A stretch of 64,000 nucleotides of DNA from Alphaproteobacteria bacterium (GTDB lineage: Bacteria; Pseudomonadota; Alphaproteobacteria; UBA828), in contig CBDCQT010000012.1 of the NCBI GenBank assembly GCA_965220745.1, positions 96,001 through 160,000 on the forward strand, in the 5' to 3' direction. Positions 30,810 through 52,067 of this stretch are shown here, piece by piece. The notes beneath the pieces were generated by a model. That model saw nothing but the letters and a program-made list of their open reading frames with translations, searched no databases and had not been told where the DNA came from. Each line of letters opens with the position of its first letter. The stretch's first letter is position 1. The position numbers were made by a program, and so were the translations under genes.

Positions 30810-30979
30810 GGCGCGGGGGTGTATCATCCTGGCGAACTATTGGCAAACAGAATCGAACAACTCAGAGGCATCTCCAGACCGCTCTAGTCCACAACCGAAC
30901 GGCCTAACCTATTGATCTATCATGCTTCAGTCCCCTCTAGGCCGTTCCTGGCTGCTAGAGGCCGAACAAAGTTTCGAAA

Positions 30980-34589: not shown

Positions 34590-34764
34590 GGCTGGGCGCA
34601 GCCTTCGAAAGCCGGGACGCCGGACTTCCAGGGACGAGAGGGACAGGTCGGCACACCACGCATGAGGTCGTGTCCCGAACAGCGCTTTCAGCCAGCATCT
34701 ACGAACGGAATAGAGGCCGCTGGGTGCGACCGAACGGCTTCAAAGATTGAAGGAGACGGAATCC

Positions 34765-35721
34765 ATGAACCAGATCCCCGTTACCGTTCTGACCGGCTAT
34801 CTCGGCGCCGGCAAGACAACGCTCCTGAACCGCATCCTGACCGAGGAGCACGGCAAGAAATACGCCGTGGTCGTCAACGAGTTCGGCGAAATCGGCATCG
34901 ACAACGACCTCGTGGTCAACGCCGACGAGGAAGTGTTCGAGATGAACAACGGTTGCATCTGCTGCACCGTACGCGGGGATCTGATTCGCATCCTTGGCGG
35001 TTTGATGAAACGGCAAGACGGCTTCGATGGAATCCTCATCGAGACCACGGGCCTTGCCGATCCCGCGCCCGTCGCCCAGACCTTCTTCGTGGACGAAGAC
35101 GTTCGGCGACGGACCTGGCTCGATTCGATCGTAACGGTGGTCGACGCCCGCCATGTCGTCCGGCGGCTGGAAGACAGCCATGAGGCGCTGGAACAGATTG
35201 CCTTTGCCGACGTCATCCTTCTCAACAAGACGGATCTTGTGCCGGCCGATGAGCTGGCGCAGGTGGAAACGCGCATCCGTTCGATCAATGCGACGGCGGT
35301 TATCCATCGCACGCAGCGATGCGAGGTGGGTCTCGACACGGTTCTGGGGCGCCGAGCTTTCGATCTTGATCGCATCCTGGCGATCGAGCCGGACTTTCTT
35401 TCGGAAGACGACCATGAACACGACGATGCCGTGAAGAGCGTCTGCCTGCGCACCGACCGGCCCTTGGACGGAACCCGCCTCACAGGGTGGTTGCAGCGCC
35501 TACTCGCCGAGCGTGGTCAAGACTTTCTGCGAACCAAAGGGATCCTGTCGATCGCCGGTCAGGACAAGCAGTTTGTCGTCCAGGCGGTCCATATGCTGAT
35601 GGAAGGTAATTTCACGAAGCCGTGGAGCCCTAACGAGAAACGAGAGAGTCGCTTGGTCTTCATCGGACGAAACATCGATGAGCTGGAGCTTCGACAGCAG
35701 TTCGACGCCTGCACCGCATGA
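34765..35721 (+). CDS. COG0523/CobW-family metallochaperone GTPase
   Basis: GYLGAGKTT, NEFG, GCICCT, ETTG, NKTD, R.KG and LVFIG motifs. Confidence 0.92.
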   Translation: MNQIPVTVLTGYLGAGKTTLLNRILTEEHGKKYAVVVNEFGEIGIDNDLVVNADEEVFEMNNGCICCTVRGDLIRILGGLMKRQDGFDGILIETTGLADPAPVAQTFFVDEDVRRRTWLDSIVTVVDARHVVRRLEDSHEALEQIAFADVILLNKTDLVPADELAQVETRIRSINATAVIHRTQRCEVGLDTVLGRRAFDLDRILAIEPDFLSEDDHEHDDAVKSVCLRTDRPLDGTRLTGWLQRLLAERGQDFLRTKGILSIAGQDKQFVVQAVHMLMEGNFTKPWSPNEKRESRLVFIGRNIDELELRQQFDACTA

Positions 35722-36773
35722 GCTTGTCCGCTGAGCTGGACAAGACGTCGCTGCTCGATCGCATCGGCACCGGCCGCTCGCTCGACGCTTATGTGGTAGG
35801 CGTCGCGTTCCTTGAGGAGGGACTGCTCGCGGCTGCACTCGGGGACGGTCGGGTCGCGTTCATCGACAGCGAGAGCACGAATCCTCCGTCCTTCGTTTCG
35901 GTGCATGACGGGGCTTGTCTTGCGCTGGCCGTCGACTTGGGGCAGCAGCGCGTTCTGACAGGCGGAGACGATGCTCGGCTGGTGAGCACCGATACCGACG
36001 GCGAGACCACCGAAATCGCAGCCATTGCGGGGCGATGGGTCGAGCCGATTGCCGTGAGCAAGGCATCCGGACTATGCGCTGCGGTCTTCGGCAAGACAGT
36101 TTCCCTTTTCGCGCAAGATGGAAGAGCGCTTGGAACGTTCGATCATGCAAACACAGTCGGCGGTCTGGCATTCGACCCGAAAGGGCGGCGGATCGCCGCC
36201 GCGCACTATGGTGGAGTCAGCCTCTGGTGGGCGAAGGTCAGCACGCAGGAACCTAAACGACTTAGCTGGTCGGGCTCGCACCTTAGTCTGACCTGGAGCC
36301 CGGACGGGAAATACATCGTCACCGCAATGCAGGAGAACTTGCTGCACGGCTGGCGTGTCTCCGACAGCACCGATATGCAGATGCCTGGCTACCCGACGAA
36401 GGTCAAGTCGATGAGCTGGCTGCCGAAGGGAAGGTATCTGGCGACCGGCGGCGCGGAGTCCGTGGTTTGTTGGCCATTCCACGGCAAGGGCGGCCCACTG
36501 GGCAAGGCGGCGCTCGACATCGGGTGGGGCTTCGAGGGTGTGGTGACGGTGGTGGCTGCCCACCCCCGGCATGACGTGGTCGCCGCCGGATACGAGGACG
36601 GTGCCACCATCCTCGTGCAGATCGACCGCGATCATCCGGTTGTGGTCAAGCGACCCGGCAAGGGCGCTGTGACCGCGCTCGCATGGTCGGCGGATGGACA
36701 GCATCTCGCACTCGGTACCGAGAGCGGCTTTGTCGGTCGAATTAGCCTTTCCGACTGGCGGACTCCATCATGA
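35718..36773 (+). CDS. WD40-repeat protein
   Basis: TGGDD, WSPDG and WSADG blades; ATGA overlap with COG0523 gene. Confidence 0.85.
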   Translation: MSLSAELDKTSLLDRIGTGRSLDAYVVGVAFLEEGLLAAALGDGRVAFIDSESTNPPSFVSVHDGACLALAVDLGQQRVLTGGDDARLVSTDTDGETTEIAAIAGRWVEPIAVSKASGLCAAVFGKTVSLFAQDGRALGTFDHANTVGGLAFDPKGRRIAAAHYGGVSLWWAKVSTQEPKRLSWSGSHLSLTWSPDGKYIVTAMQENLLHGWRVSDSTDMQMPGYPTKVKSMSWLPKGRYLATGGAESVVCWPFHGKGGPLGKAALDIGWGFEGVVTVVAAHPRHDVVAAGYEDGATILVQIDRDHPVVVKRPGKGAVTALAWSADGQHLALGTESGFVGRISLSDWRTPS

Positions 36774-36806
36774 GCGCGAACAGGGAATTCCAATCGAGGT
36801 TCTTCC

Positions 36807-37016
36807 ATGAGACGGGGGGCAAGACGCGCACAATCCCCATGCATCGACGTCTGCCGACTCGACGCGAAGACGGGGTGGTGCCTGGGCTGTGGCAGGACCG
36901 CCGCCGAGATCGGAGACTGGCTCAAGCTCACACCGTTCCGCCGAGGCCGGCTTGAACGGGAACTCGCACGGCGCCTGGTGAAGCTCGGACAGCGCGCGCC
37001 ATTGGAAAGCGAATGA
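36807..37016 (+). CDS. DUF1289-like small Cys-rich protein
   Basis: SPCIDVC.LD...G.C.GC.RT..EI..W. Confidence 0.8.
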
Positions 37017-37044
37017 AACGGTCGGCGATCACTATTCACGATCC

Positions 37045-37745
37045 ATGAACCAAGCTGCCGCTGACCATCTGGTTCGCGGCCATCCACCTGATCGTCACGG
37101 CGAAGAACGGTGTCTCGTCGGTCGAGTTGGCCCGCCGTCTCGGCGTCAAGCAGTCGACGGCCTGGACCATGAAGCACAAGATCATGGCGGTGATGACGCA
37201 CCGCGAAGGAGAGGCGCCGCTCTCGGGTCGGGCGGAGATTGTCGCGGTGCCGAGGATCTCGGCGCCGGTGGGTTGCCTGTTGTCGTCGCGGCAGATGAAG
37301 ACGGCGTTGAGCCTGTCATCGGCGTAGAGCAGTCCGCGGCTGTGGCAGGCTTCGAGCAGATGGTCGAGGGAGCCGGCCATGTCCTCGGGTTCGGCGGCGT
37401 CCATGACGAGGTGCTGGCGGACGCGCGAGGCGATAGGCTGCAGGTCCTGCCTTCGCAGCCTGTCGTTCAGGCGGTTGTCGCCGACGAAGACGACCGAGAG
37501 AATGGCGCGGGAGTCGAAGTCGGTGGACGCAAGGAGGCGGATCTCGGCGAACACCGAGGGCAGCAGTTCCTGTGCCTCATCGATGAGCAAGAGCGGGTGC
37601 ATGCGGGTGTCTTCGAGATGGGCGAACCAGCGCCGGCGGAACATCTTGAAGCCGCCCCAGCTGCTGTGCGGCAGCAGAGAGATGCCGAAGGTCTCGCCCA
37701 TCTCGCGGTAGAAGTCAGAGAGTCTGGAGGAGGGGTGGGTGCCCT
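37045..37745. pseudogene. Mobile-element debris: IS1595-like fragment (+) and ExeA-like AAA ATPase fragment (-)
   Basis: KLPL..WF.AI.L....KNGVSS.EL.RRLGV.Q.TAW.M.HKI; LLIDEAQE...EIRLL. Confidence 0.65.
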
Positions 37746-37856
37746 GGAACTCCGATCCCGACGCTAGAACTGACTGACCACGCCACTCAAACCGCCCCCC
37801 TGAAAGTGGCTGTCAACTCAAATCCACATAAAAGCGCTCAATGACGGTCTTGCAAC

Positions 37857-38888
37857 TCAGTCGGGCTTGCGGGCAAGGAAACAATAGAGCGGTGTGAATA
37901 TGCCCGTTTTGCCGCCCGCGACATAGGCGTTCGCCGTGCGGTCCATCAGTTGGACAACGGCCGCTGAACCATTGGGAAAGAGCCGGAACACCTCCGCCAT
38001 CCGCAGACCCGCGAATATCGCCCTGCGACCCAAGGGCGTCCTGCGAAAAGCGTTGCCCAATGTCCCGCTCCGGCCTTCCATTGGCCGATGCCACGGTATG
38101 CCCTGGCCTTCCCTGTCGTCCCTGTTCGCTGCTTCGATGACGTCGAAGCCCGCAGCCTCAAGCGCGCGATTCACCTCCGAGAACGTGGCGATCTCTTTCA
38201 GGGCAATTCCCCGCTTGAGTTCATCCTTGATAGTGCGGTGACGGCTGTCGCTGGGGTCAAACTTTTCCGTCATGCACATCTCCTGACCCCACAGCAGGGC
38301 TCCCGGTTTGAGCACACGATATATCTCCGCAAACGCGCGCTCCTTGTCCGGCGCGTGGCAGGTCGACTCGATGGCATAACCCGCATCGAACGAGTTGGCC
38401 TCAATCGCACTCATATCCATGAAGTTGCATTTGATATACTCCGCCATATCGTCGAGCCCCGTCTCGATATTCCTCCGCTTGGCCTGTTCCAACTGCTGTT
38501 CGTTATTGTTGAGGCCGACAACCCTGGTGCCGCCTTCGCGGATGACCCGCCGCATGGGACCGCCCACGCCGCAGCCGACATCGACAACCACCATGCCCTC
38601 TCGTAATTCCAGCTTCTCGATCATCAGACGCTGATGGCGAACGACCGAGTCCTCCAGAGATTCCTCGCGCGTCAATGGCGCGAAATGGAGGGACTCGCCC
38701 CACCCGAATTGCATGATTCCGCTGCACAGCTCGTAGTAATCGTTCACCGTCTCGGTGAAGTCATAATCGCCGTCATCGGCATCGGCCCGCTCCATTCTGT
38801 CGAACCGATCGCCGAAACGTGCTACACGACCTCTGACGTCCCGGACTTGGTAAAGGATCCGCAGGTATCTGGACAAACTTGCTAACAT
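37857..38888 (-). CDS. Sterol 24-C-methyltransferase-like SAM-dependent methyltransferase (ERG6/SMT family)
   Basis: VN.YY...GWGESLHFAP, DVGCGVGGP, AIESTCHAP, EIYRVLKPG and C-terminal GG..GIFTP.Y.FLARKP. Confidence 0.85.
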   Translation of the reverse strand: MLASLSRYLRILYQVRDVRGRVARFGDRFDRMERADADDGDYDFTETVNDYYELCSGIMQFGWGESLHFAPLTREESLEDSVVRHQRLMIEKLELREGMVVVDVGCGVGGPMRRVIREGGTRVVGLNNNEQQLEQAKRRNIETGLDDMAEYIKCNFMDMSAIEANSFDAGYAIESTCHAPDKERAFAEIYRVLKPGALLWGQEMCMTEKFDPSDSRHRTIKDELKRGIALKEIATFSEVNRALEAAGFDVIEAANRDDREGQGIPWHRPMEGRSGTLGNAFRRTPLGRRAIFAGLRMAEVFRLFPNGSAAVVQLMDRTANAYVAGGKTGIFTPLYCFLARKPD

Positions 38889-39325
38889 GTGCTGCCTCGT
38901 TTATTGTCCATCTCGCAGTTTAGCTCTTTGGTAGCGGATGGCAACGACGCCGGAAGCATTTGCTAGTCTTACGGCGGTTTGTCTCCACATCACAAGGGAG
39001 GGATCCAGGCGAGGGGAGGCGCCCTTCGCCGCCGGCACCGGGGAAAAAGACCAAGCGAAGCCGGTTGACGGCTGGTGCCGGGACCATCGACATGGCCCTG
39101 CTGTCGGGCTCATGCGCCGTTCATTTCGCTGACGAACTCAACGGTCGTTTCATTACACTAAAGGCGCCGAGCACGGGCCACTAGCAATGCAGGGGCCGTC
39201 GAGGCGACCCCAAAGACGTGACGGGTGGCGAAAACCGGGCTAAATTTCGCGCGACATGGTGAGAGGGGGCGCTTGTCTGGGAACGATCGGCCCCCATCTC
39301 AGCTCTTATGGGAGGCCTTGGCCCG

Positions 39326-41347
39326 ATGCCCGACTCGGCCGCTACGGCCCAAGAACTGCGTCTGCCCGAGGAGCTTATCCTGATGCTCCTCAACGAGCAG
39401 AACGGCTATTTCCACCAGGTCCCCGGCTGGAATCTGAACTGCGCGGTGGTGGGCGCGGTGCTCGCGGAACTCTCCCTGCTCTCGCGCATTGACACTGATC
39501 TCGATTCGCTGATCCTCGCCGATCCAGCGGAGACGGGCGATCCGGTGCTCGATCCCGTCCTAAAGGAAATCGCCGGGGAGTCCGTTCAACGGGACGCCGT
39601 GTACTGGATCGAACGGCTTGCCGGCAAGGCGGAATCGATCATCGACCACACCCTCGAGCGCTTGGTCGAGCTGAAGATCCTGGAGCATCACGACGGCGAT
39701 TTCTGGACGCTGGCCGCCGCGACGTGGCGCGAGGAGTTGTCCGGTGGTTCCCAGGAAGGCACCGTTGGCCAGTTCGTAAAAACGCGTGTCCTCAAGGCGC
39801 TCTTCACCGACGAGATTCCCGACCCCAGGGACATCATCGTCATCTGCCTCGTCAATACGTGCGACGTCTTTCGCTTCATGTTCGAAATCGACGACGAGAC
39901 CCAAGAGCGGATCGATTTCATTTGCCGGATGGATCTGATCGGCCGTTCCATCGCCGCCGCGGTCGAGCACAACATCTCCAGCCCGTCGCTGCGGCCTTCC
40001 GCGCTGACTAAGAAAATACCCGTCGTCCCCCTGCACAAGCTCTTGCTGAACCCGCGTCTTCGGGGCGGCAACATCGCCGCCATTTTCGCGCACATCGCGG
40101 AAGAACACGGTCCGGTTTTCCAAATCCGTCCTCCGTTCCAGGAACCCACGACCTTCCTCGCCGGGCCCCAAGTCAACCGTTGGATACACCGGAACGGGCG
40201 CATGTATCTGCGGTCCAGGGACTATTTCACCGACATCGAGAAGGTTTATGGCGCGTCCGGGGTGATTGCCTCGCTCGACGGGGCCGACCATTTTCAACTG
40301 CGCAAGGCGATGCAGCCGGGCACTTCCCGCGGGAGGCTGGAGGATCGACTGCATGACCTCTACGGCCATGCCCGCGCGTTTATGGCGGACTGGAATGTGG
40401 GATCGTCGCTGCCGGCGACCAGCATGTGCCGACTGATGATCAACGCGCAGATATCCCCGCTGGTCATCAGCATTGATTCACAGGACTTCGTGGAGGACCT
40501 GATCAGATTCAAAGAGCGCGCGCTCACCACCCACGTGGCCAAAGTTCTGCCCAAGTTCATGCTGAACACCCCATCGATGAAACGTGCGTCAAGGGCCATC
40601 GACATCGGGGTACAGCGGATCCTGGGCCTCCACACGCCCGCCCAGCGGGTCGGTTGCCCCCGGGATCTCGCCGACGACCTGCTCAGCCTCCACGCCAGCG
40701 ACCCGCAGTTCCTGCCCGAATCGAACCTGGCCTTCGCTCTTTCGACGCCCATGCTGGCTAGCATGTATCTGGGAGACGCGTTCGGCTGCGCGCTCTACGC
40801 CATGGCGTCGCAGCCTACGCTCTACGAAAGGATCCGTGCCGAAGCCGACGCCCTCTTTGAGAACGGCGATCCGGATGCCAAGGACTTCGCCGACGAGTCC
40901 ATCGACGTTACGCGGCGCTTCATCTTGGAATGCCTGCGCATGTACCCCATCGTGCCCGCGTCCATCCGCAACGTCATGAATTCATGCGTTGTCGAGGGCC
41001 ACGAGCTGCCCGTGGGCGCGCGCATCGCCATCGCCTCGACGGCGCCGCATTACATGAGCGACGTCTTCCCGGACCCCTTCACATTCGACATCGACCGCTA
41101 TCTGCCGCCGCGCAACGAGCACCGCAGTCCCGGCTATGCGCCTTATGGGCTTGGCACCCACAAATGCCTCGGCTTCCGCTGGGTGGACCTGCAGCTGGCT
41201 GTCAACCTGCTGATGGTCGCACACTACTTCACGCTCAAGGTATCGCCCGCGAATTACAAGCTCCGGATCAGTCCGTTTCCGTCGCTGTCACCGAGCAAGA
41301 AGCTGAAGTTCCGCATTGCCGAGCAGGTGCGCGAGCTGCCCGCCTGA
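39326..41347 (+). CDS. GOLPH3/Vps74 (GPP34)-like domain fused to cytochrome P450
   Basis: N-term L.LPEEL.L.LL...GAVL.EL.L..RI...TGDP.LD..L; C-term ECLR (ExxR), FDIDRY, PYGLGTHKCLG heme motif. Confidence 0.8.
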   Translation: MPDSAATAQELRLPEELILMLLNEQNGYFHQVPGWNLNCAVVGAVLAELSLLSRIDTDLDSLILADPAETGDPVLDPVLKEIAGESVQRDAVYWIERLAGKAESIIDHTLERLVELKILEHHDGDFWTLAAATWREELSGGSQEGTVGQFVKTRVLKALFTDEIPDPRDIIVICLVNTCDVFRFMFEIDDETQERIDFICRMDLIGRSIAAAVEHNISSPSLRPSALTKKIPVVPLHKLLLNPRLRGGNIAAIFAHIAEEHGPVFQIRPPFQEPTTFLAGPQVNRWIHRNGRMYLRSRDYFTDIEKVYGASGVIASLDGADHFQLRKAMQPGTSRGRLEDRLHDLYGHARAFMADWNVGSSLPATSMCRLMINAQISPLVISIDSQDFVEDLIRFKERALTTHVAKVLPKFMLNTPSMKRASRAIDIGVQRILGLHTPAQRVGCPRDLADDLLSLHASDPQFLPESNLAFALSTPMLASMYLGDAFGCALYAMASQPTLYERIRAEADALFENGDPDAKDFADESIDVTRRFILECLRMYPIVPASIRNVMNSCVVEGHELPVGARIAIASTAPHYMSDVFPDPFTFDIDRYLPPRNEHRSPGYAPYGLGTHKCLGFRWVDLQLAVNLLMVAHYFTLKVSPANYKLRISPFPSLSPSKKLKFRIAEQVRELPA

Positions 41348-41349
41348 CT

Positions 41350-42165
41350 CTACCGCACACGCTTGAGCGCCGTCCGGGTGAAGTCGCCGAGGTCGAGGTC
41401 CGTGCCGAACTCGTAGTCCGACCAGTTCAGCACGGTGCTCTTGCCCGTGAGATGGTTGGTCATCGTTATCGTTCCGGCCCGCCAGAAGCGATCGAGATAG
41501 ACCTCGTAGTCCTCGATGACCATTGTCTTGAGATGCGCCTCCCTGCGATCGAAGAACTCGATCTGCTGGGTGCGAAGCTCCCCCCGGTCGAGCCAGACCA
41601 CCTGGCGGGAATACCCCGAATCCTCGCTGAGGGGGACGCGTTCCAGGACCGCGCATTCGAGATCGCCGCAGGGCTCGTCGCGCAGGTAGCGATGAGCGTA
41701 TTTCTCGACCTCGACGGCGCCCATGTCTTCGTAGGAGAACTCGCTGCCCATAAAGGAGCCGGACTGCTTCGAGGCGCTGATGCGCTTGACCCGCTTCAGG
41801 GCAGGAAGATAGAGCCACTGTTCGTCCGCGTCGTTCTTGTGGGCGTGGACGAGAAACGCAGTTCCCTTGACGTCGCGCGGGCGGTCGAACACGAACAAGG
41901 TGCGATCGCCGTCCTCCTCGACCTCGATGACCTTCAGGCGCAGTTCGCGCTTGCTTTCCTGCCCCCGCTTGTTGCGCAGGACCATGTTCAGGCTTGCGGT
42001 GAAGTTGCCGAAACCCTTCTGGCGTTCGCGGGCTTCGGTGGCGATCTCGAGCCCCGTTTCCTCGGCGCTCTGCGCGTGACCGACCGACGGCTCGTCCGCC
42101 CAGACGAAGGCGGCAAGAAGGATGGCGGACAACGCAAGCGCGGGGTGGGGGAGAGCGACACGCAT
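41350..42165 (-). CDS. Outer-membrane lipoprotein-sorting (LolA-like) protein
   Basis: Signal peptide, F..P.DVKGT.FL, QWLYLPALKRVKRI, FMGSEFSYED. Confidence 0.85.
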   Translation of the reverse strand: MRVALPHPALALSAILLAAFVWADEPSVGHAQSAEETGLEIATEARERQKGFGNFTASLNMVLRNKRGQESKRELRLKVIEVEEDGDRTLFVFDRPRDVKGTAFLVHAHKNDADEQWLYLPALKRVKRISASKQSGSFMGSEFSYEDMGAVEVEKYAHRYLRDEPCGDLECAVLERVPLSEDSGYSRQVVWLDRGELRTQQIEFFDRREAHLKTMVIEDYEVYLDRFWRAGTITMTNHLTGKSTVLNWSDYEFGTDLDLGDFTRTALKRVR

Positions 42166-42429
42166 CACCGTTTCCTCCTGTCGGCGGCCATCGGCGGAGC
42201 GGGGAAAGCGGGACATTGATGGCGGTATCCGGGCAGCGACCGGACCATGTCGTCTCGTTCACCTTCGCCGGAACTTATTCGCACATGGTAGCACGATTCC
42301 TGCCCTGCAAATGAAACCTCCGCTTGAGCGTGTCCGTCTTTGACGGACGCGCGACAGGCCGTGACCGCGGCCCGCCGCTGATGCGGCGCGCCCGCGCAGG
42401 CGCCGGCCACAGGCCGGCTGCCGTGAGCG

Positions 42430-42750
42430 AAATAGTACGAGAGCGTTTCCGTGTAGAAACACCAAGAGACGATATGGTGGTTTAGAAGTTTGAGCCAATA
42501 TGCGATGGTCGTCCACTTCTCATGTTGTATATCAGAGGTTTGTCAGATATTCAACCATAGAATTTTGAGTACAATGGCCATGGCAGGATTTGCCTGTCTT
42601 GTGGTGATAGTGACACTTTGGTGTTGAAGTGTTCCTCATATGGGCGGTAATCTGCGGCTTATGGGGTGCATCTCGATGATAGATATGTAGTCCGTATGGT
42701 TTCTACGGTATAATATGGGACGATATTGGGAAATCTCCATAGGATAGCGA
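42430..42750. promoter_or_regulatory. AT-rich non-coding region (promoter and/or oriT candidate)
   Basis: Sharp GC drop, TATAAT at about 42709, directly upstream of three RHH-like genes. Confidence 0.45.
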
Positions 42751-42758
42751 GCGGGCCG

Positions 42759-43091
42759 ATGCCGGCGAGACAAAAGGGCGAAAAGCGGAAGCAGCGCTGG
42801 GTCGGTGCAACCGATGCCGAATGGGCCGAGATCAGCGAAGGCGCGCAAGCGGCGGGATTGTCCAATTCCGACTACGTCATCCGGTGCTGCCTTGAGGGCA
42901 AGGCGCGGGCCGAGCCGACCGATGCCGCTCTGCCCTCGCCGGTGCTGCAGCGAGCGGTGAAGGCGGTATTGATCCTCGAAGAACTGCAAAGGCTGCGGCT
43001 CGCGAACGACGGCGAGATAGGCGAAGCACTGTGGCGGAGGGCGGTGGGCGAGGTGGACGCCTGGATCAAGGGCGAGGACGATCTGGGATGA
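42759..43091 (+). CDS. RHH/MobC-like protein 1
   Basis: ATDAEW..I...A.AAGLS.SDYV pattern. Confidence 0.6.
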   Translation: MPARQKGEKRKQRWVGATDAEWAEISEGAQAAGLSNSDYVIRCCLEGKARAEPTDAALPSPVLQRAVKAVLILEELQRLRLANDGEIGEALWRRAVGEVDAWIKGEDDLG

Positions 43092-43104
43092 AGCGGAAGG
43101 TGCC

Positions 43105-43431
43105 GTGATCCTCGCGAAGAAGCGCTGCATCTACTGCTCCCCAGAGACGCGGGAGAAGATGCGGCGGCGGGCCAGGAAGGAGAGGATTCCGCTCTCGCGC
43201 CTGGTCATTCTGTGCTGCCGCCGGGTTGCGAGCGCGAGCGCTCCTCCGGAACCGCCCGGTCATCGCCTGGCGCTTGCCGAGGACGCGCAGCGCCGCCTTT
43301 ACGAGGACAGCCGCGTTCTCGCCCGGTCGAAGGGCATCGTTGTCGATGCGCAGGAAGGCGGGAAGGCGACCCTGGCGATCCATGAAGTGGTTCGTTTTCT
43401 GCTGCTTTGCGAAGAAGAGCAGGAGGCATGA
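43105..43431 (+). CDS. RHH-like protein 2
   Basis: IYCS.E.RE....RA......LSRL pattern; coupled to next gene. Confidence 0.5.
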   Translation: MILAKKRCIYCSPETREKMRRRARKERIPLSRLVILCCRRVASASAPPEPPGHRLALAEDAQRRLYEDSRVLARSKGIVVDAQEGGKATLAIHEVVRFLLLCEEEQEA

Positions 43432-43925
43432 GCAAGCCGCGCGTGCGCAGGGCGGGGACCGAACAAACGATTTCCGCGACCGACGAGGAATGGGCCGACG
43501 TCCAGTCGGGGGCGGACGAAGCCAGAATGTCGGTGTCGGCCTGGGTGGTCCATTGCGTGTTGACGGTGGACCCCCTGCCGCGGAAGCATCGCCGGCTGGT
43601 GCTCGACGAGAAACAGCAGAAATCTGTCTCACGGGCCGTGAGCGAGCATGCACGGAGCCTGCGCTCGGACGTCGACGCGCCTTCGCAGGTCACCGACGAC
43701 CTCGGCGCGCTGCTGAAGGCGCGGCTTGAGACGATGGACCGGCAGGACCGGGGCAGCGAAGCCGCGACGCTCCTTCGGCAGGTATTCGGCGAGGAGCGGG
43801 CGGCAATCATCGCCGCCGCCTTCATGCCGAATGTACGGATGACGCCGGAAGCGGCGCAAAAACCGCAGAAGCCCGCACCCCGAAAGAAAAGGGTCCGCGA
43901 CTCCGGTCAGGGCGAGTTGTTCTGA
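43428..43925 (+). CDS. RHH/MobC-like protein 3
   Basis: RBS AGGAGG, ISATDEEW..V...A....MSVS.WV, similar to protein 1. Confidence 0.6.
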   Translation: MSKPRVRRAGTEQTISATDEEWADVQSGADEARMSVSAWVVHCVLTVDPLPRKHRRLVLDEKQQKSVSRAVSEHARSLRSDVDAPSQVTDDLGALLKARLETMDRQDRGSEAATLLRQVFGEERAAIIAAAFMPNVRMTPEAAQKPQKPAPRKKRVRDSGQGELF

Positions 43926-44230
43926 TTGCAGGCAGGCAGATCGGGCGAACAGGTGCGGCAGTCAAGAGAGAGCGAGGTCGACCCGCGCGGGCCTCTGCCC
44001 CCGACGGTGTCGGGCTGGAAAGACGGGGCACCTCCGATGACGTCCCTTGATCATCGAGGCAAGGGCCGAGGGGCTCCGGCCGGTCGACGAACGGCTGGAG
44101 CGCTCGCCGCGCTGCATCGAGCTCGCCTGGGCCAGGCGCTGAAACGGCGTCCTGCCCTCGACCACGGTGGGCGGCGGCCTCTCGCCGCTCCTGTCGCTCC
44201 AGTGAAGCAGGGGGCATCGGCGGGACAATC

Positions 44231-45598
44231 ATGGCTCTCGAAGTCGTAAAGGCGTTCACCCTGGAGCACGTCCGGTGGCTCGCGCCCCTCGAGGAATGGG
44301 CCCTGCGCGAGGTGAAGGGCGCAGCGGTAGAGGGCAGGGAGCCGAAGCCGGAGGCGCGAGGGATCTACGACCCCTTGACCGAGGACATCCGCAACGGGAA
44401 CTGCTGGATCCTCTGCAATTGCCTTCCCCATGAGCCGGAGCGGCCGGTCATCGTGCCCGCTCGGAGAACGCGCGGCATCAGTCTCGGCAACCTGCCCGAC
44501 GCTCCGGTGCCGCATGACGGGAGTTGCGTCTTCCGCCTGCGCGGACACTCGATAGACACCTCCGGTTATCTCTTCAATCCGCTGACGTACGACCGGCAGG
44601 GCGCGGCTTCGTTGGAACGCGACCGGAGGCGCGAACCCCGGGGCCGGGGCGGTCGGTCGGTCCCGGTCGTGGCCCACGTGCTCAAGTGCTTCATCCGGGA
44701 GGCGCGGCTGCACACGTTGGCAGGCGCGGAGCGGTTCCCGTCTCCGGCGGACTGGCTCGCGGAACTCGCGCGCGCCGCGGCCGCGTTCCCCGTTGCGCCG
44801 AATGTTCCGGCGTCGGAGGTGCTGTTGACCGACCCCGCGAGATGGCGCTCGGGCGAATTCCAGAAAAGGCTGGACGAGCGCGCACAGAAGTGGCCGAAGG
44901 GTTCCCCGCCCTGCGGCTTCCTGTGCTGGGACGCGGACGACGTGGAGGACCACGAGATCAACGGCAAGACCACGGGCGCCGGCCACGTGAGGGTGACCTC
45001 TCGCGTGGTCTCTCCGCGCGTCTACGACAACAGGGTGGTGGGGCCCTATCTCTTCCTGGGGGCGCTGGAACAGTCCGAAGACCGATCCGGGTGGGAGTGC
45101 TGCATGGCCTATGCACATCCCATCGCCGCACTGGAATTGCCGATCCCGGTCGAGTCGGAATACGAGCGCCAGGCGCTCCTGTCGCTTCCACAACTGGTCC
45201 GGGATCTCCAGAGCGACACGAAGCTTGAGGAGGCGCTCGGCGGGGTCGTCGGGGTCGAGCTCCAGAAGCCTCTCTTCGAGATAGGGGTGCGCGAAGGCCC
45301 CTGTCGACCGGACGTCCTTCTCACCGTGACCCGCCCTGGCGGTCCGGTCCCCCGTGTCCCCGACGATGCCTTCGACGGCAGCGACAAGGTGCACTACGTC
45401 ATCGAGGTCATGGGGTTCGACGACGAGAAATACAAGAAACGGAAGGAAAAGACCCACCGCCGGATGGAGCGGCTCGGCCGGGTGATCCCCCTGGAGGGGT
45501 GGACGTTCGAGGCCGCTCACTACGGCCTGGAGCGCCAGCTCGAGAGGATCGCCTTGCGGATCGCGAAGGATCTCATCCGGCGATGGGGAGCAAGCTGA
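44231..45598 (+). CDS. Hypothetical protein with Cys/His motif and PD-(D/E)xK-like nuclease C-terminus
   Basis: WILCNC, H...C.F, PVES.YER, RPD.LL, IEVMGF...Y..RK. Confidence 0.6.
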   Translation: MALEVVKAFTLEHVRWLAPLEEWALREVKGAAVEGREPKPEARGIYDPLTEDIRNGNCWILCNCLPHEPERPVIVPARRTRGISLGNLPDAPVPHDGSCVFRLRGHSIDTSGYLFNPLTYDRQGAASLERDRRREPRGRGGRSVPVVAHVLKCFIREARLHTLAGAERFPSPADWLAELARAAAAFPVAPNVPASEVLLTDPARWRSGEFQKRLDERAQKWPKGSPPCGFLCWDADDVEDHEINGKTTGAGHVRVTSRVVSPRVYDNRVVGPYLFLGALEQSEDRSGWECCMAYAHPIAALELPIPVESEYERQALLSLPQLVRDLQSDTKLEEALGGVVGVELQKPLFEIGVREGPCRPDVLLTVTRPGGPVPRVPDDAFDGSDKVHYVIEVMGFDDEKYKKRKEKTHRRMERLGRVIPLEGWTFEAAHYGLERQLERIALRIAKDLIRRWGAS

Positions 45599-45766
45599 CG
45601 GTTCCGGTTCCCGCGGCGGGTTCCCGGCGCCCCGAAAACGCCGAACCGGCGGCGCGTCGGAGGCGGCCGGCAGTCGCAGGAACCTCACTGGGCTCCGCGA
45701 CGGCCTGGAGCGCACATGGTACGGCACACTAACATGCCGGATCGGCTTCCCGGGAATGCGACGACA

Positions 45767-48700
45767 CTAAGGCATCCAGGGGCGCCTGCGCATGACGTAG
45801 TGCCGTCCATGCTGCTGGTTCAGTTCGACCCGTATCTTGTCCAGCTCCATCTTTCTGGCGCGCGCCTTGGACCAGCGTTCGTCCTCGTCGTCCCGGAATG
45901 CGCGCCATCGCGCGAATGGGAAGAGTTCGTCGAGCGAAAGGCTGAATTCCCGGCAAGGCTCGTCGTCCGAACGCGAGATCTCGCGGAGCTTGCAGCTGTC
46001 CTCCGCTTCGGTCTTCCCCGCCGTTCTCTCGACCACCTCCAGCTCGATCTGCACGACCGTCGGGCGGCCCAGGCGCGCGCTCGCCGGCGCAGCCGTTTCC
46101 GATCGGCCGACCTCGCTGCACCACAACCGGTCGCCCCTGGTGAGATCCCGTGAGCAGTCGAGTGGATAGCTGGCCGGGGGTTCCGGCCACTGGCGCGCCC
46201 GCTCCACCTCGCGAAGCCTCTCGTCGCTCCACTCCGCGCGATGGACGCGGCCCGCGAGCTTCGTTGCGGACATTCGCGTCACCGGCTCTTCGGCTGTGCG
46301 CCCCGTCGCCGGCGCAGCCCATTCCAGCTCCACCTCGTCGTGGCGGGTACACCCGCCGGTCCGTCCGGGCTGGAGCACCACCGCTTCGCGTTGCGGCTCG
46401 TCGTCCGATCGCTGCAACCTGATCCTGTCGCCCGCGAGCAGCGGTTCCGCGCCCCACCAACGGCGGTCGAACGCGTGCCCGACGGCGGGATCGCGAAGCC
46501 GTGCCAGCTCCGCGCCCACCATCTCCGCGATCCGGTCCTCCTCCAGCTCGGGAACGGTTTTCCGCTCGCTTGCGCGCCGAAGTCTCTGCTCGATGCGCTC
46601 GAGCATATCCGGGCGACCTCGCCAGCGCTCCCGGGTGCCCTCGTCCAGTACCCACTGGGCGTCGTCCTCGAACCGGAGGCTTCGTTCTTGCCACGCCGGC
46701 CATTCGGCAAGCAGCGACAACGGCAGTGTCTCCCGCGTCGCGCGTTCCTCGAGCCGGCGGTATTGCTCGTCTACCTGATTCGCTTCCCGGAACAGGCTTT
46801 GGAACGTCATCCATTCGATTGAGAGGGCGGCATGCTCGTCGATCTCGGCCTGCAGCCGGCGCCGGGCCGCCTCTTCCAGGTCCGGTTCCTTCGCCAGGCG
46901 CTCCGCTCGGGCGATGGACTTGTCGTACCCCTCGTCACCCACGGGCGAGATGCCCTGCGCCAGCGCACCGGGTTTCGTCTCCTCGATCCGGTTCATCACC
47001 GAGACGAAGCGGTCGAGCAGGTGGTGACTCTCCAGCCGCTTCAGAGCGGCAGTCAGCGCTTCCCTGCCATCCGGTATCCGGTCGAGATGGGGAGCATAGG
47101 TGTCTTCGTCCTTGTGGATTGCTCGTCCCGTGGTCAGCAGCTTCTCCGGAAAGTCGGTGAGGGACCGGTAGCCCGGCAGGCCGATGACGAGGAAATCAGA
47201 ATCCTGCCGGGCACGCCGCTTCGCTTCTTCCTGCAGGTCCTTCCAGTACTGCCCATGTTGCCCGGCTCCCTGGAGGAAACCGTCGACGGTGGCGCGCTCC
47301 GTGCTGCATCGACTGTCGTATTCCAGCACCCGCTCCACCATGTTACGTGCCTGGTCCGGCAAGCCCTCCCTCCGGCCGAGCGCGCGGGCCTCCTCGACGA
47401 GCTCTTCCCAGCCCGGCAGATAGAAGGCGATGACGTTCCCGGCCTTCGCCCGGTCCGCCATCGCCAGACGCTTCTCGAACACCCCCGCCCAGGCCAGATC
47501 GTGCTTGCCGAGTTCATCGAGCTGATCGACGGCGGCCGCGATCTCCCCCGCTTCATCCTTCAACCGGTCGAGATGGGGTTGCCATGTATCATGGGGCCGC
47601 CATGTATCATGGGGCCGCCATGTATCATGGGGCCGCCATGTATCATGGGGCCGCCATGTATCCGGATCTTCACGCTTGGAATCCGGCACTTCACGCATGG
47701 CGCGCCAGCCTTCGCCCAGCTCTCCGCAACGCGCCAGCCAGTCGGCATAGCCTGCCAGTTCGGTGGGCGGGGTGAATGTAGATCGGTACTCCGTGCTGGC
47801 GCGGTCCTCCAACTTCGTGTGCTCGTCCAGAAGCCCGACCGCAGAGGCATGAAGTGCGACGATTGCCGCCTTCCGTTCTTCGCAGGCCTCTGCATGGTCA
47901 AGGACCTCCCTGGCTGCTGCCAGCGCCCATGCAGGAAGGGGGGATCGCCTGGTAAGTGTCGTGGCCCGCCCGACAAGATCGTCATGGCCCTCGGCGTAAA
48001 ACGGAATCGCGCCTTCAGCCGCGGCCCGCGCCGCCACCTCGCGGCGTATCGTGTCGAATGCGAGCACCGCGTCGTCGACCGCCAGCAGGTCGGCGAGCTG
48101 CCCGAGGCGCTCTGAGATCGTTCCGCCCACTTCGCCCGCGCGCTCGCCCAGGGCCGCGAGCAGGACCTTGCCGTTCGCCGAAAGACGTCCCGACATCTCC
48201 CGCCACTCCGGGTAGTCTTCCAGTCCGGCAACCGGGCACGTCGCGGACTCGGCGGCCTCGTCCAGGCCGCGCCTCGTTGCGTCATGCGCATCGAGCAGTC
48301 CGAGGAACTCCACTGCCGCCCTGTCCCCCTCACGGCAGGCGCGGTCGTAGGCGAGCAGGCCGTCCACGTCCTCCCGTGTCAGGGCCGGCAGGTCCGGCTT
48401 CCCGGCGAGCTCCCGCGCGCGTCCGATCAGCGCCCCGTAGCCCTCCACCAGGAACAACACCGTAGCCTCGCGCCGCGCCCGCCGTTCAAGGGCCTCCCAT
48501 TCGTCGCGCAGCGTCCAGACAGGCTCCTTCTCCGCCAGCAGCCGGACGATCTCCTCAGGCTCAATCTCGATCGGAGCGTCGACCGCCTCGATCGCCGTCG
48601 GCCGCTCCCCGGTGTTGTCGGCCAGAACCTTCACCAGCTGCTCGGCATTGTCGGTGAGCACCACCGCCCGCTCCCGCGCCCGGCTGATCTCGACGTAGAA

Positions 48701-51298
48701 GGTCGACTGGTCGGTGAGCGCGCCGTGGCTCGAATCCAGCACCGCGATCACCCCCTCCGCCGTGCTCCCCTGCGCGCCGTGCACGGTCGAGCTCCAGGCG
48801 TGGTCGATATGCCGCAGCTGCGGATCGTCCAACCGCAGCGACAGCCCCCGCCCGTCCGCCAGTCTGAACCGCACCCGGCCCTTGGCGATCCCCTCCACCT
48901 CGGCCCGCTCGCCGTTGATGAGCGACCGCTTCCTGTCGTTCCGGGTCCAGCGGATCCGGTCGCCCGCGCGGACCTCCATGGGACGGGTCTCGTAGACGTC
49001 GAGCTGGTAACGGATCGAGCCCGCCGGGCGGATCCAGCGCTGCTTGCCGTCGGGATGCAGCAGCATCACCCGGTCGTAGTCGATCCCGGTCACCGTCAGG
49101 ATCTCGTCCTTCTTCAGCCGGTAGTTGACCAGGTCCTGGTGGAACACCACCAGGTCCCCTTCGCGGTAGTTGCGCACGTCCCCCTTCTCGGTCCGGGTCA
49201 AGCCCAGGCTGACCAGGCGCTCGATCCCGAGCGCCTTCCCCCGGAGCACCCCCTCATTCGCCAGTGCCTCCCGGACGGTCCGGTTGATTTCCTCCCTCAA
49301 CGCATGGGTCGGCGCGACCAGCAGGGTGTTGTCGCGGGTGGCGGGGTCGAGAGCCAGCCAGGCCTGCGCCGCCTTCTCGCCGAGCTCTTCGTGCGCCACC
49401 TCGTGCACGCTGCTGCCGAGCAGCTCCACCGCCTCGCCGGGATCGCCCGCCAGAACCGCCTGCACCGCCGCCCGCAGCTCCGGGTTCCGCTGGCGCAGGA
49501 TGTCGTCCATCGCCGCCGTCGTCATCCCCGCCCGCTGCAGCAGACGGAACGGCTGCCCGGCTTCCACCGCGCGGAGCTGGCTGCTGTCGCCCACCAGCAC
49601 CACGCGGGAAGCGTCGAGCTCGTCCGCCGCCCGCAACAGCGAGCGCATCTGGTCGGTCGACACCATCGAGGCCTCGTCCAGCACCAGCACCGCGCCGCCG
49701 AAGGTCTCCCTCAACGCCTCCAGCGCCTGTCGGTTGCCGCCCGCCGCCCGGCGGCGCGCCAGGAACCACTGAAGCGTTCGGGCATGAATGCCGGTCTCGC
49801 GACCCAGCACCGCAGCCGCCGCAGCCGAGGGCGCGAGTCCGAACACCGGCTTCTCCCCGGCAAGCGCCCGCACCTGGCGCAGCATCGTCGTCTTGCCGGT
49901 CCCGGCCCGGCCCTGCACGCCGACGACCCGGTCGTGCGCCAGCAGGATCGTGCGAACCGCCTCCCCCTGTCCCTCGGTGAGCCCGGCGCCGTCGAGACGG
50001 GCGGCCACGTCCCTCTCCCGGGCCAGCGCCGCGCCGGCACCGATCCCGGCCTTCATCATGGCGATCGTGGACCGCTCTGCCTTCAGCGCCCGGTCGGTGA
50101 CGAAGGCCCGGTCGGCGCGCCGCAGCTGGGCCTCGACCAGGTGGCCGTCGCGGACCAGCCAGGCGATCGTGTCCCGGATCTCCCCGAGCGAATGCCGGCC
50201 CGGCGAATGGCCGAGAGCAAGCGCCTCGAGCTCGTGTTCGGAAAAGACCGATTGCCGTTCCTCAAGCTGGCGCATGCAGCGGCGCACGATCGCCAGCGCG
50301 GACGGGCTCTCCGGAAGCATGATCGCTTGCTCGGAGCGTGTCTCTGCGAGCGCCGTGTCGAGGCTCAATTCCTGTGCGCGGGCCCGCCATAGCTCCTGCA
50401 GCTGAGCCCGCACCGGCTCCGCCTTCCGCTTGCGCGTCGCCAGCGTCGCCGCCTGCATCGCCGCCGCGCCGCGGTCCCAGCCCTTCTCGTCCACATAGGC
50501 CAGGATCTCGTGCCTGCGCGTCGAGAAGGCTCTCCGCAGCTCCCCGCCGTAGCCCGCAAGCTCGAAGCTCGGCAGCCGACCCACCATCGCCGGCACGATC
50601 GAATAGCCCTTCGCTATCAGCTGCCGCGCCAGCCGGTCGCGGTAATAGGCTCCGATCAATCTCGCATTGCGGTGCAGCAGCGTCGGCTCCACGCTTTTCC
50701 ACCGCCCCTCCTCGTCCCGGGTCATGTTGGCGATCACGGCGTGAGTGTGGAGCTGCGGATCGAGGTTGCGGCTTGCGATGTGGCGGAACAGCGCCGCCAC
50801 CATCGAGGGCGCCTTCACCCTTGGCCGCCTGCCGGTGGCGGGGTCCCAGCCACGGGTCTCCAGCAGCATCCCCTCGATCCAGTCGAGCGTCTCGCGCACC
50901 GCCGCACTGTGCGCGCGAATGACCGCCCGGTCGCCGTGCGGGTGTTCCTCCGTCGGCAGAAGCGCCGCCAGCGACACCGACTTCGGCGCCGAGAAGGTGA
51001 TGTCGAAGCCCGGGCGATGCTCGTGCTGCCCGTCGCGCAAGCGCCCGAGCCGAGTCCCTGTTCCGATCACGTGGCCCTGAAGAAGCTTCTCGAAGGCGCC
51101 CGCCGCGACCGGCTTGCCGGGATGCAGTCCCAGGGCAACCGCGCCCGCACCGTGCCAGGTGCTCGCGTTCCGGTGCTCGGCCCGCTTGGCCCGAAGGTCC
51201 GCCGCGTCCTCGCCTTTCCTCAAGTAGTAGCCGCCGTCCTGGCGGAAATACTCCGACGTGGCAGAGGACGAGGTCAGGTTGCGGACCGTCGCGACCAT
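45767..51298 (-). CDS. trwC: MOBF (TrwC/TraI-type) relaxase-helicase with long repetitive C-terminal extension
   Basis: Y..(G)GYY, FDITFSAPKSVS, H..SR.LDPQLHTH, FSTRR..I, G.AGTGKT, DEASM, GD..QL, TVH.AQG.T. Confidence 0.9.
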   Translation of the reverse strand: MVATVRNLTSSSATSEYFRQDGGYYLRKGEDAADLRAKRAEHRNASTWHGAGAVALGLHPGKPVAAGAFEKLLQGHVIGTGTRLGRLRDGQHEHRPGFDITFSAPKSVSLAALLPTEEHPHGDRAVIRAHSAAVRETLDWIEGMLLETRGWDPATGRRPRVKAPSMVAALFRHIASRNLDPQLHTHAVIANMTRDEEGRWKSVEPTLLHRNARLIGAYYRDRLARQLIAKGYSIVPAMVGRLPSFELAGYGGELRRAFSTRRHEILAYVDEKGWDRGAAAMQAATLATRKRKAEPVRAQLQELWRARAQELSLDTALAETRSEQAIMLPESPSALAIVRRCMRQLEERQSVFSEHELEALALGHSPGRHSLGEIRDTIAWLVRDGHLVEAQLRRADRAFVTDRALKAERSTIAMMKAGIGAGAALARERDVAARLDGAGLTEGQGEAVRTILLAHDRVVGVQGRAGTGKTTMLRQVRALAGEKPVFGLAPSAAAAAVLGRETGIHARTLQWFLARRRAAGGNRQALEALRETFGGAVLVLDEASMVSTDQMRSLLRAADELDASRVVLVGDSSQLRAVEAGQPFRLLQRAGMTTAAMDDILRQRNPELRAAVQAVLAGDPGEAVELLGSSVHEVAHEELGEKAAQAWLALDPATRDNTLLVAPTHALREEINRTVREALANEGVLRGKALGIERLVSLGLTRTEKGDVRNYREGDLVVFHQDLVNYRLKKDEILTVTGIDYDRVMLLHPDGKQRWIRPAGSIRYQLDVYETRPMEVRAGDRIRWTRNDRKRSLINGERAEVEGIAKGRVRFRLADGRGLSLRLDDPQLRHIDHAWSSTVHGAQGSTAEGVIAVLDSSHGALTDQSTFYVEISRARERAVVLTDNAEQLVKVLADNTGERPTAIEAVDAPIEIEPEEIVRLLAEKEPVWTLRDEWEALERRARREATVLFLVEGYGALIGRARELAGKPDLPALTREDVDGLLAYDRACREGDRAAVEFLGLLDAHDATRRGLDEAAESATCPVAGLEDYPEWREMSGRLSANGKVLLAALGERAGEVGGTISERLGQLADLLAVDDAVLAFDTIRREVAARAAAEGAIPFYAEGHDDLVGRATTLTRRSPLPAWALAAAREVLDHAEACEERKAAIVALHASAVGLLDEHTKLEDRASTEYRSTFTPPTELAGYADWLARCGELGEGWRAMREVPDSKREDPDTWRPHDTWRPHDTWRPHDTWRPHDTWQPHLDRLKDEAGEIAAAVDQLDELGKHDLAWAGVFEKRLAMADRAKAGNVIAFYLPGWEELVEEARALGRREGLPDQARNMVERVLEYDSRCSTERATVDGFLQGAGQHGQYWKDLQEEAKRRARQDSDFLVIGLPGYRSLTDFPEKLLTTGRAIHKDEDTYAPHLDRIPDGREALTAALKRLESHHLLDRFVSVMNRIEETKPGALAQGISPVGDEGYDKSIARAERLAKEPDLEEAARRRLQAEIDEHAALSIEWMTFQSLFREANQVDEQYRRLEERATRETLPLSLLAEWPAWQERSLRFEDDAQWVLDEGTRERWRGRPDMLERIEQRLRRASERKTVPELEEDRIAEMVGAELARLRDPAVGHAFDRRWWGAEPLLAGDRIRLQRSDDEPQREAVVLQPGRTGGCTRHDEVELEWAAPATGRTAEEPVTRMSATKLAGRVHRAEWSDERLREVERARQWPEPPASYPLDCSRDLTRGDRLWCSEVGRSETAAPASARLGRPTVVQIELEVVERTAGKTEAEDSCKLREISRSDDEPCREFSLSLDELFPFARWRAFRDDEDERWSKARARKMELDKIRVELNQQHGRHYVMRRRPWMP
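47573..47662 (-). repeat. 18-bp in-frame tandem repeat x5 (DTWRPH) in relaxase
   Basis: GCCATGTATCATGGGGCC units on + strand. Confidence 0.95.
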
Positions 51299-51420
51299 GA
51301 CGCAGGATCATAGCGGTCCGGCGGTGATGTCGCGGTCAAAATACGACCGGAGTTGGGGCTTGCGCTCCACTATAGGCGCACTTGTGCCGGCCCATCGTTG
51401 TAGGGGGCTTGGCGCTTTGT

Positions 51421-51657
51421 CTAGCCCTCGCTCCCCTTGGCGCCGTTGAGTTGTCTGGCCGCGAGAGCCTGTCGCACGAGTTCCATCGCGTAAGGAATCT
51501 GGCGGGCGTTATCCACCTCCACCTGAACGTCGCCGTTGCCCCAGAGCCCGAGATTGGTCACGTCGGCGGCAAGCCCGCGCGGGCCGGAGATGTCGTCAAA
51601 GCGCATGTTGAGGGAGAGCAGAAGCCGGCGCTTCTGCGGCACCACGTCCGTGAAGTT
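51421..51657 (-). pseudogene. C-terminal DUF5655-like fragment of a defence/R-M-associated gene, cut by IS3
   Basis: F.DVVPQ...L...LNM....I..P.GL..DVT.LG.WGNGDV.V...LVRQ. Confidence 0.65.
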
Positions 51658-51714
51658 TGATCCTCCCCCATCGGATTGGTCCACCCTTAGGTTATGGAAA
51701 GAGGAGGACCGACG

Positions 51715-51993: not shown

Positions 51994-52067
51994 GCCCCTC
52001 GCGCCGGCGCCAGTGCATCGATCATGTCTGTGACCGGCTCGGGGTCTCGGAACGCCGCGCTTGCCGG

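Follow-up and report, generated by a model that had tools for sequence, protein, structure and literature searches.

Steranes with alkylated side chains serve as fossil evidence for early animals. Bacterial sterol C-methyltransferases (SMTs) make some side-chain alkylated sterols, and the enzymes for others, e.g. for C-26 methylation, are described as unknown in the main text of Brown et al. (2023; PMC10070321). According to the main text of the Brown and Welander preprint (10.64898/2025.12.19.695621), all SMTs active on desmosterol or 24-methylenecholesterol keep the Region I motif GWGxxFHF; F89 is among 25 residues conserved in functional SMTs, the yeast substitutions Y81F and Y223F alter the product outcome, and seven of 11 SMTs inactive on both substrates deviate from conserved residues. 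The present analysis concerns an SMT-family gene without this Region I motif. It lies in a 64,000-nucleotide stretch of an alphaproteobacterial genome (assembly GCA_965220745.1, contig CBDCQT010000012.1, positions 96,001 to 160,000; this whole stretch is hereafter the window), together with a gene that fuses a GPP34 (GOLPH3-type) domain to a cytochrome P450 and a gene for a LolA-like candidate lipid carrier.

The fusion has a literature of its own: the main text of a 2025 Microbiome study (PMC11706023) reports 656 GPP34+P450 proteins, all from sponge symbionts, proposes that they are secreted effectors that bind phosphatidylinositol 4-phosphate (PI4P), and contains neither “sterol” nor “methyltransferase”. 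Conversely, the main texts of Brown et al. (2023; PMC10070321) and of the preprint (10.64898/2025.12.19.695621) contain neither P450 nor GPP34, and a literature search found no paper connecting the GPP34-P450 fusion with SMTs or sterols. The literature treats the fusion as a hallmark of sponge symbiosis, suggests another role for it and does not link it to lipids; described here is a distinct SMT subclade with a remodelled sterol pocket, found across symbiont phyla and genetically tied to the fusion. For lipid carriage, a concept is available from Methylococcus capsulatus: as set out by Zhai et al. (2024; PMC10942540), BstA, BstB and BstC transport cytoplasmically made sterols in this diderm, from an inner-membrane resistance-nodulation-division (RND) protein through periplasmic carriers to the outer membrane. 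The loci described below share this concept, in that they hold MMPL/RND transporters and small lipid carriers, but no BstB or BstC chain is among the fold matches listed for the LolA-like protein, and no RND gene adjoins it in the window.

The conserved unit and its neighbours

Three open reading frames (ORFs) were called in the window, and their families were assigned by Pfam profile search (Table 1). All three genes are intact and stand where the initial annotation had placed them, in the layout it had described: the SMT and fusion genes diverge, and the fusion and LolA-like genes converge, with stop codons 2 bp apart. This arrangement is not an assembly artefact because contigs of other public runs span the P450/LolA junction (e.g. 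X10 record 6, 41097-41418). The methyltransferase matches Sterol_MT_C at 1e-16 (61.2 bits against a cut-off of 21.7, residues 280-342) and Methyltransf_11 at 2.5e-19; the fusion matches GPP34 (7.8e-28, residues 19-220) and then p450 (2.3e-31, residues 253-666) within one ORF; the third protein matches LolA_like (PF17131) at 2.1e-59. The LolA-like ORF is open back to 42216 (288 aa), yet its start is likely at 42165, where the orthologues begin (MRVALP) and where a signal-peptide-like hydrophobic stretch starts. In NCBIfam, neither the SMT nor the fusion reaches the cut-off of any specific model, and the LolA-like protein has no model match of any kind. Promoter and terminator sites in 37600-42700 are no more numerous than in shuffles; the spacer between the divergent genes holds one sigma-70-like site (minus strand, 38944-38917; shuffle mean 1.3), which is no evidence of a promoter.

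Table 1. Features at the methyltransferase locus and on its flanks, in window coordinates.
Feature	Position	Strand	Remarks
Truncated ATPase-like ORF, left flank	37036..37701	minus	partial AAA_22 (profile positions 69-130 of 130, 2.9e-7) and a DUF3991 piece
SMT-family C-methyltransferase, “L89” subclade (Region I GWGESLHF)	37857..38888	minus	343 aa; Pfam and tree
Divergent spacer between SMT and fusion	38889..39307		419 bp; from ORF coordinates
GPP34-P450 fusion	39308..41347	plus	679 aa; GPP34 domain ~39362-39967, P450 domain ~40064-41305
LolA_like lipid-carrier candidate, predicted periplasmic	41350..42165	minus	271 aa from likely start; Pfam, orthologue starts
Multi-copy repeat, start of the neighbouring relaxase element	42326..42577		copies in G001, contig divergence
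Independent mobilisable element	42726..51298		NikA-like ORFs, 455-aa ORF, MobF/TraI relaxase
NikA-like ORFs	42726-43091 and 43407-43925	both plus	one below Pfam cut-off
MobF/TraI relaxase	45767-51298	minus	1843 aa; MobF model 234 bits, cut-off 100

How much of this arrangement is conserved? A scan of one genome per species returned 284 relatives of the methyltransferase, and the best 80 loci were studied; by record title they belong to Chloroflexota (38), Pseudomonadota (31), Thermodesulfobacteriota (3), Actinomycetota (3) and Rhodothermota (2), with three unplaced, and their SMTs are 62-99% identical to that of the window. A GPP34-P450 gene is present in 53 of the 80 loci. Altogether there are 55 such genes, three of them cut (L001 by an insertion sequence, IS; L018 and L046 by a contig end), and 36 lie no more than 600 bp from the SMT gene (28 convergent, seven divergent, one tandem): the two genes remain neighbours although their order and orientation vary. 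In 18 of the 27 genomes that lack a fusion near the SMT, a full-length one is present elsewhere; of the others, two have stop-codon fragments, two have partial copies at contig ends, and five gave no fusion with this query. The LolA-like gene, by contrast, lies within only five of the 80 loci. The conserved unit is therefore a pair of genes, SMT and GPP34-P450, and not the three-gene cassette proposed at first, even though the three do occur together elsewhere. The convergent P450/LolA arrangement is also seen with spacings of 87 bp in G005, 119 bp in G015 and 115 bp in L010.

Orthologues of the LolA-like protein (E <= 1e-30, 54-80% identity) were found in 23 of 50 carrier genomes, but in none of the 18 titled Chloroflexota or Dehalococcoidia, nor in the two actinobacterial genomes searched. 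In Chloroflexota and actinobacterial lineages that lack it, an LppX/LprG-type lipoprotein and an MMPL transporter fill the neighbourhood; the LolA-like gene is an accessory of carriers outside Chloroflexota.

Clustering of all ORFs of the 80 loci, followed by a profile scan of the cluster representatives, reveals a recurrent company of oxygenases and transporters: a Rieske + KshA_C oxygenase (40 loci), an MMPL transporter with a sterol-sensing-type domain (29), an FAD amine-oxidase-like protein (23), an AcrB-type RND protein (18), HlyD (17), MFS (14), OEP (10) and an LppX_LprAFG lipoprotein (10). In G020 the fusion gene adjoins both an MMPL/Patched-SSD transporter and a gene that fuses squalene epoxidase (SE) to oxidosqualene cyclase (OSC). 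The genome of the window has orthologues of two of these neighbours on other contigs: the FAD enzyme (78% identical; C10:600917-602254) and the Rieske-KshA_C protein (62% identical; C11:517921-518922). The latter gene stands directly beside a gene for the periplasmic lipid-binding protein MlaC (both within C11:517013-518922, minus strand; L088:6013-7922), a second pairing of a module enzyme with a lipid carrier. A second LolA_like gene and four GPP34-only genes are also encoded in the genome.

The three proteins

The methyltransferase was placed by a quick tree with 124 rows, of which 20 are window-type or second-copy proteins and 104 are full-length proteins drawn from 150 representatives (10 of these representatives had their names looked up). 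The L89 clade, of 20 rows, is a single branch with SH-aLRT support of 100 inside a bacterial SMT group with support of 95; the named eukaryotic SMTs (rice SMT1-like, the Cladosporium Erg6 cluster, Rhodomonas and Mesostigma) fall on the other side. By profile and tree, then, the enzyme is a member of the SMT family in a well-supported bacterial subclade. It groups with sterol methyltransferases, as the initial annotation had supposed, but it is not “eukaryote-type”: its subclade is bacterial, and Regions I and IV are altered there.

All five motifs read at first in the translation are there (GWGESLHF, DVGCGVGGP, AIESTCHAP, YRVLKPG and GIFTP..ARKP), and they include an intact Region II S-adenosylmethionine (SAM) motif, DVGCGVGGP, and the Region III glutamate E195 in AIESTCHAP. 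Region I is a different matter: it follows GW[GNST]ESL[HQ]F in all 80 loci, with L always at the F89 position and G86 often replaced by N, S or T, so that the window enzyme, with GWGESLHF, departs from the GWGxxFHF motif of the desmosterol- and 24-methylenecholesterol-active SMTs. In yeast numbering, obtained by offset from motifs quoted in the Brown and Welander preprint, four aromatics in the regions that bind sterol are replaced: Y81M (window residue 59; Y in 89% of the other tree rows), F89L (residue 67; F in 91%), Y223Q (residue 202; Y in 71%) and W225M (residue 204; W in 84%). The canonical GWGxSFHF is present in second SMT copies of L031, L059 and L066 and on contig C13 of the window genome, and the second copy of L005 has I at position 89. 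Compared with the bacterial C-24 SMTs presented in the main texts of Brown et al. (2023; PMC10070321) and of the preprint (10.64898/2025.12.19.695621), the window enzyme shares the class I methyltransferase fold with Sterol_MT_C, the intact Regions II and III, the bacterial origin, the sponge-associated hosts and the presence of some copies in genomes with OSC clusters; it differs in belonging to a separate subclade with F89 changed to L in 80 of 80 loci, Y81 to M, and Y223/W225 to Q/M. Its substrate is probably something other than desmosterol or 24-methylenecholesterol.

The fusion has the same two-domain ORF and the same symbiont-restricted distribution over many phyla as the GPP34_L proteins in the main text of the Microbiome study (PMC11706023); there the proposed role is that of a secreted anti-phagocytosis effector, whereas here the protein has an SMT as its partner and steroid-type oxygenases and lipid transporters in its company. 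The AlphaFold2 model of the fusion is confident, with a mean pLDDT of 83.3 and a pTM of 0.76; 49 orthologues align along their full length, with invariant heme-loop Cys620 and EXXR residues, and no N-terminal signal-like stretch was found in the fusion. Judged from sequence and model, the P450 is an E-class fold with no clear nearest family, and an ESM Atlas search with this domain returned generic P450 clusters only. CYP51 sterol 14alpha-demethylase is its best PDB match, with a similar overall fold, but the match is weak and partial. Could the fusion P450 nevertheless be the CYP51 of this genome? This candidate was rejected: the partial 4e-17 match compares with 1.4e-104, along the full length, between a C13 gene product and the M. 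capsulatus enzyme. A low-confidence alignment sets ASMYLG of the fusion P450 against the CYP51 I-helix AGHHTS; if it is correct, the usual I-helix threonine would be missing. The GPP34 domain matches human GOLPH3 weakly (E 0.017), keeping the residue aligned to W81 and placing a Val at R90; these are positions that we take to be important for PI4P binding. A complex prediction of the GPP34 domain with the SMT scored 0.00 against a mark of 0.32, which counts neither for nor against binding.

The model of the third protein has the open beta-barrel fold of the LolA superfamily. Its best match is the Vibrio structure 3bk5 (TM-score 0.88, normalised to target; 51% identity), and other fold matches include P. 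gingivalis LolA3 and a DUF1329 protein. Classical LolA chains reach a TM-score of only ~0.5 (again normalised to target), so the protein is not the LolA orthologue. Its sequence lacks a lipobox cysteine and shares two invariant Cys residues with its orthologues; the protein would be a soluble periplasmic carrier.

Sterol supply, substrate and rival explanations

If the enzymes act on a sterol, where would it come from? A complete cluster for de novo sterol synthesis lies on contig C13 of this assembly, which is 1.08 Mb long and has the same G+C; in a row it holds genes for a 3beta-hydroxysteroid dehydrogenase/epimerase-like protein, a Rieske/VanA_C protein, an ERG4_ERG24 reductase, CYP51, an SE-OSC fusion and a canonical SMT, with SdmAB-like genes included in the cluster. 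The SE-OSC gene (C13:19399-22851, plus strand in L085:11399-14851) encodes 1150 aa and scores 750 bits with TIGR03463 against 277 bits for hopene cyclase. The same fused architecture is present in G020, and a literature search covering titles and abstract openings found no paper describing a bacterial SE-OSC fusion. The genome has two SQHop_cyclase matches, C12:725597-726550 and C13:21793-22767, both outside the window (C12:96001-160000); this agrees with the initial remark that the window holds no cyclase, although no separate search of the window was made for squalene epoxidase. A gene of squalene-hopene cyclase (SHC) type is on C12. Among the 50 other carriers, an OSC-type match was found in 13, and 12 of these lie in open frames of 1124-1340 aa.

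The loci carry a sterol-type lipid-tailoring module of symbionts. Its gene identities, linkage, distribution and altered active-site residues are observations; a substrate, an order of reactions, a part for the GPP34 domain and a cargo for the carrier are inferred. The favoured reading, which we hold as probable with some reserve, is that the enzymes act on sterol, with SMT and GPP34-P450 as the core and a LolA_like gene often beside the fusion outside Chloroflexota, and that the window copy is a reduced version of a module for lipid tailoring that is common to sponge- and coral-associated bacteria of several phyla. In such a scheme, (i) the substrate would be a sterol, most likely one made by the genome’s own OSC/CYP51/canonical-SMT cluster; (ii) the P450, held at the membrane or on the lipid by its GPP34 domain, would oxidise or desaturate this sterol, working with the KshA-type Rieske oxygenase and the flavoprotein encoded elsewhere in the genome; (iii) the L89 methyltransferase would methylate a side-chain double bond other than those used by ordinary C-24 SMTs; and (iv) the LolA_like protein would carry the hydrophobic product across the periplasm to the outer membrane or to an exporter.

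Several observations weigh against this reading. The P450 is only distantly related to sterol P450s: its best PDB sequence match, to M. capsulatus CYP51, covers residues 477-651 at 4e-17, and a structural search (Foldseek, fusion model) does not distinguish CYP51 from CYP184, CYP97, BM3 or CYP3A4. The L89 clade departs from F89 and T78, both listed in the main text of the preprint as conserved in functional SMTs (10.64898/2025.12.19.695621), and Y81, Y223 and W225 are replaced as well; because of these deviations, the L89 methyltransferase may use no sterol or may be inactive. The LolA-like family is not specific to this context, given the 51% identity to a Vibrio structure of unknown function. 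The module is scattered in this genome, with the Rieske and FAD genes on other contigs. In L001 an IS interrupts the P450 at Pfam position 393 of 462, and all that two other carriers have of the fusion is stop-codon fragments; the module is therefore dispensable. Finally, no OSC-type cyclase match was found in 37 of the 50 carrier genomes searched.

This last point leads to the explanation put forward in the initial annotation, that the module takes up and remodels exogenous, host-derived sterols and not bacterial ones. Ten of the 37 OSC-less carriers have only SHC-level matches, many loci have transporters and lipid carriers around the SMT, and the main text of Brown et al. (2023; PMC10070321) raises the same idea for a Chlamydiae SMT in a genome with no other sterol genes. 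However, the window genome and 13 of the 50 carriers have their own sterol cyclase, and in G020 the fusion stands beside the SE-OSC gene. Since the window genome also has its own CYP51, reductase and canonical SMT, together with SdmAB-like genes, host sterols are not required there; the idea retains its interest for the 37 OSC-less carriers, many of which are draft metagenome-assembled genomes, so that absence of an OSC is not established for them. As a general account, host-sterol remodelling is unlikely, if worth keeping in mind.

Alternatively, the substrate could be a non-sterol olefinic isoprenoid, such as a hopanoid, a squalene-type triterpene or a carotenoid, and the L89 enzyme an SMT derivative with a new specificity. 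The alga Botryococcus sets a precedent with its SMT-like triterpene methyltransferases; the four sterol-region aromatics are replaced across the whole L89 clade, and most carriers lack an OSC while several, like the window genome on C12, have an SHC-type cyclase. The company that the gene keeps argues otherwise: the KshA_C Rieske proteins and the sterol-sensing-type MMPL transporters are steroid-type neighbours, second SMT copies lie beside the L89 gene in L005, L031, L059 and L066, and the fusion is linked to SE-OSC in G020. A non-sterol substrate thus appears quite doubtful.

Very improbable in our view is the role proposed in the main text of the Microbiome study (PMC11706023), in which the fusion would be secreted, bind PI4P and stop phagosomes of sponge cells from maturing, and its link with the SMT would be incidental: the restriction of all 656 published proteins to sponge symbionts, the PI4P binding of eukaryotic GOLPH3 from which the argument is made and the conserved position aligned to W81 speak for it, but the fusion has no N-terminal signal-like stretch (another secretion route would be possible), it needs cytoplasmic redox partners because its heme loop is intact, 53 of 80 SMT loci show it in tight linkage with lipid enzymes and exporters, and it has Val at the position that the weak alignment (E 0.017) pairs with R90.

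Mobile surroundings, distribution and implications

The locus differs in composition from its contig (G+C 0.60-0.62 over 37-42 kb, 0.667 for the contig) and is bordered by mobile DNA on both sides. On the left, the truncated ATPase-like ORF fits the IS debris noted initially. A locus comparison with the relative L001/G001 (97-99% nucleotide identity) finds only 34984-37054 and 37768-41112 of the window shared: 37055-37767 has no counterpart in L001, in which 5.8 kb of other genes take its place, and 41113-42322, which holds the P450 end and the LolA-like gene, has no match in G001. Beyond it, 42323-51365, with the NikA-like ORFs and the MobF relaxase, recurs at no fewer than three other G001 sites at 83-94% identity. 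Its beginning is marked by a ~130-bp repeat (42326-42458) with six further copies in G001; many contigs in X20, X10 and X5 are unrelated before 42326, and depth is high over 42150-42577. The repeat resembles an end of the relaxase element, or else a small mobile repeat.

Could the cassette be cargo of the relaxase element? This was rejected, as the G001 copies of the element begin at window position 42323, after the LolA-like gene. Because 42323-51365 recurs in G001 without 41113-42322, the relaxase block is a separate, multi-copy element that adjoins the cassette, and the connection drawn at first between the two is lost. For the window genome, then, the host-sterol, eukaryote-type and relaxase-borne parts of the initial annotation fail.

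The wider region, ~23-55 kb, looks like a mosaic of mobile elements, with a second TrwC fragment among its contents. AbiEii toxin-like, N6 DNA methylase-like and tyrosine integrase genes lie upstream (23393-26616 and 29631-30827), and an IS3-type element (HTH_Tnp_1 + rve) has three copies in the window (12595-13823, 26614-27842 and 51657-52886), the same 843 bp of it being present at no fewer than 14 sites in the genome. To the left of the cassette, 33501-36773 holds a zinc-starvation-type set (ZnuA with a long His/Asp-rich insert, a CobW-family GTPase and a WD40 protein), which in L001 is extended by FolE, a second CobW, DUF1826 and DUF1636 and adjoined by an IS110-family transposase gene. 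Within the relaxase gene, tandem 18-nt repeats (47573-47662) encode a DTWRPH repeat. The window has no tRNA gene, and the direct repeats found are IS-derived and not attachment sites, so neither marks the limits of an island.

Where do carriers live? The suggestion that they are symbionts fits the available labels: runs with the label sponge metagenome or coral metagenome contain the window stretch, at least half of its words are present in 19 runs from eight studies, near-identical pieces are in runs X10 and X16, and the titles of related loci include Poriferisocius, Poriferihabitaceae and Porisulfidus “..sponge..”. Among 300 other genomes sampled evenly from the window’s class, none gave an L89-level match and one gave a weak partial match. 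In a tree of 84 rows, phylum labels need eight changes against a minimum of four, and the window’s nearest set mixes Alphaproteobacteria, an Ectothiorhodospiraceae bin and a Rhodothermales bin. Such mixing fits gene transfer among co-resident symbionts; mis-binned contigs may lie behind part of it, and L017 (titled Chloroflexota) and L010 (titled Rhodospirillales) agree in the identities and spacing of their matches to the four window query proteins. RNA-library contigs match parts of all three genes at ~97-99% identity, a weak sign of expression, as such matches do not show transcription; in RNA library X20 no contigs cover 38084-39367, most of the SMT, a contig gap that says nothing on expression.

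What would the module mean for its hosts and for the fossil record? It is a long shot that the L89 SMT is the missing enzyme for an unconventional side-chain methylation of sponge type (e.g. at C-26 or at another carbon left alone by ordinary C-24 SMTs), with an olefin prepared by the canonical SMT and the GPP34-P450 as its substrate. If this were true, bacterial symbionts, and not the sponge, would make the precursors of “biomarker” sterols such as the 26-methyl series, and the GPP34-P450 “symbiosis factor” would be a sterol enzyme. The genome of the window is a good source of genes for reconstitution because it holds both a de novo sterol pathway and the module, and the link between the SMT and the fusion gives the sterol-biomarker and sponge-symbiosis fields a testable hypothesis.

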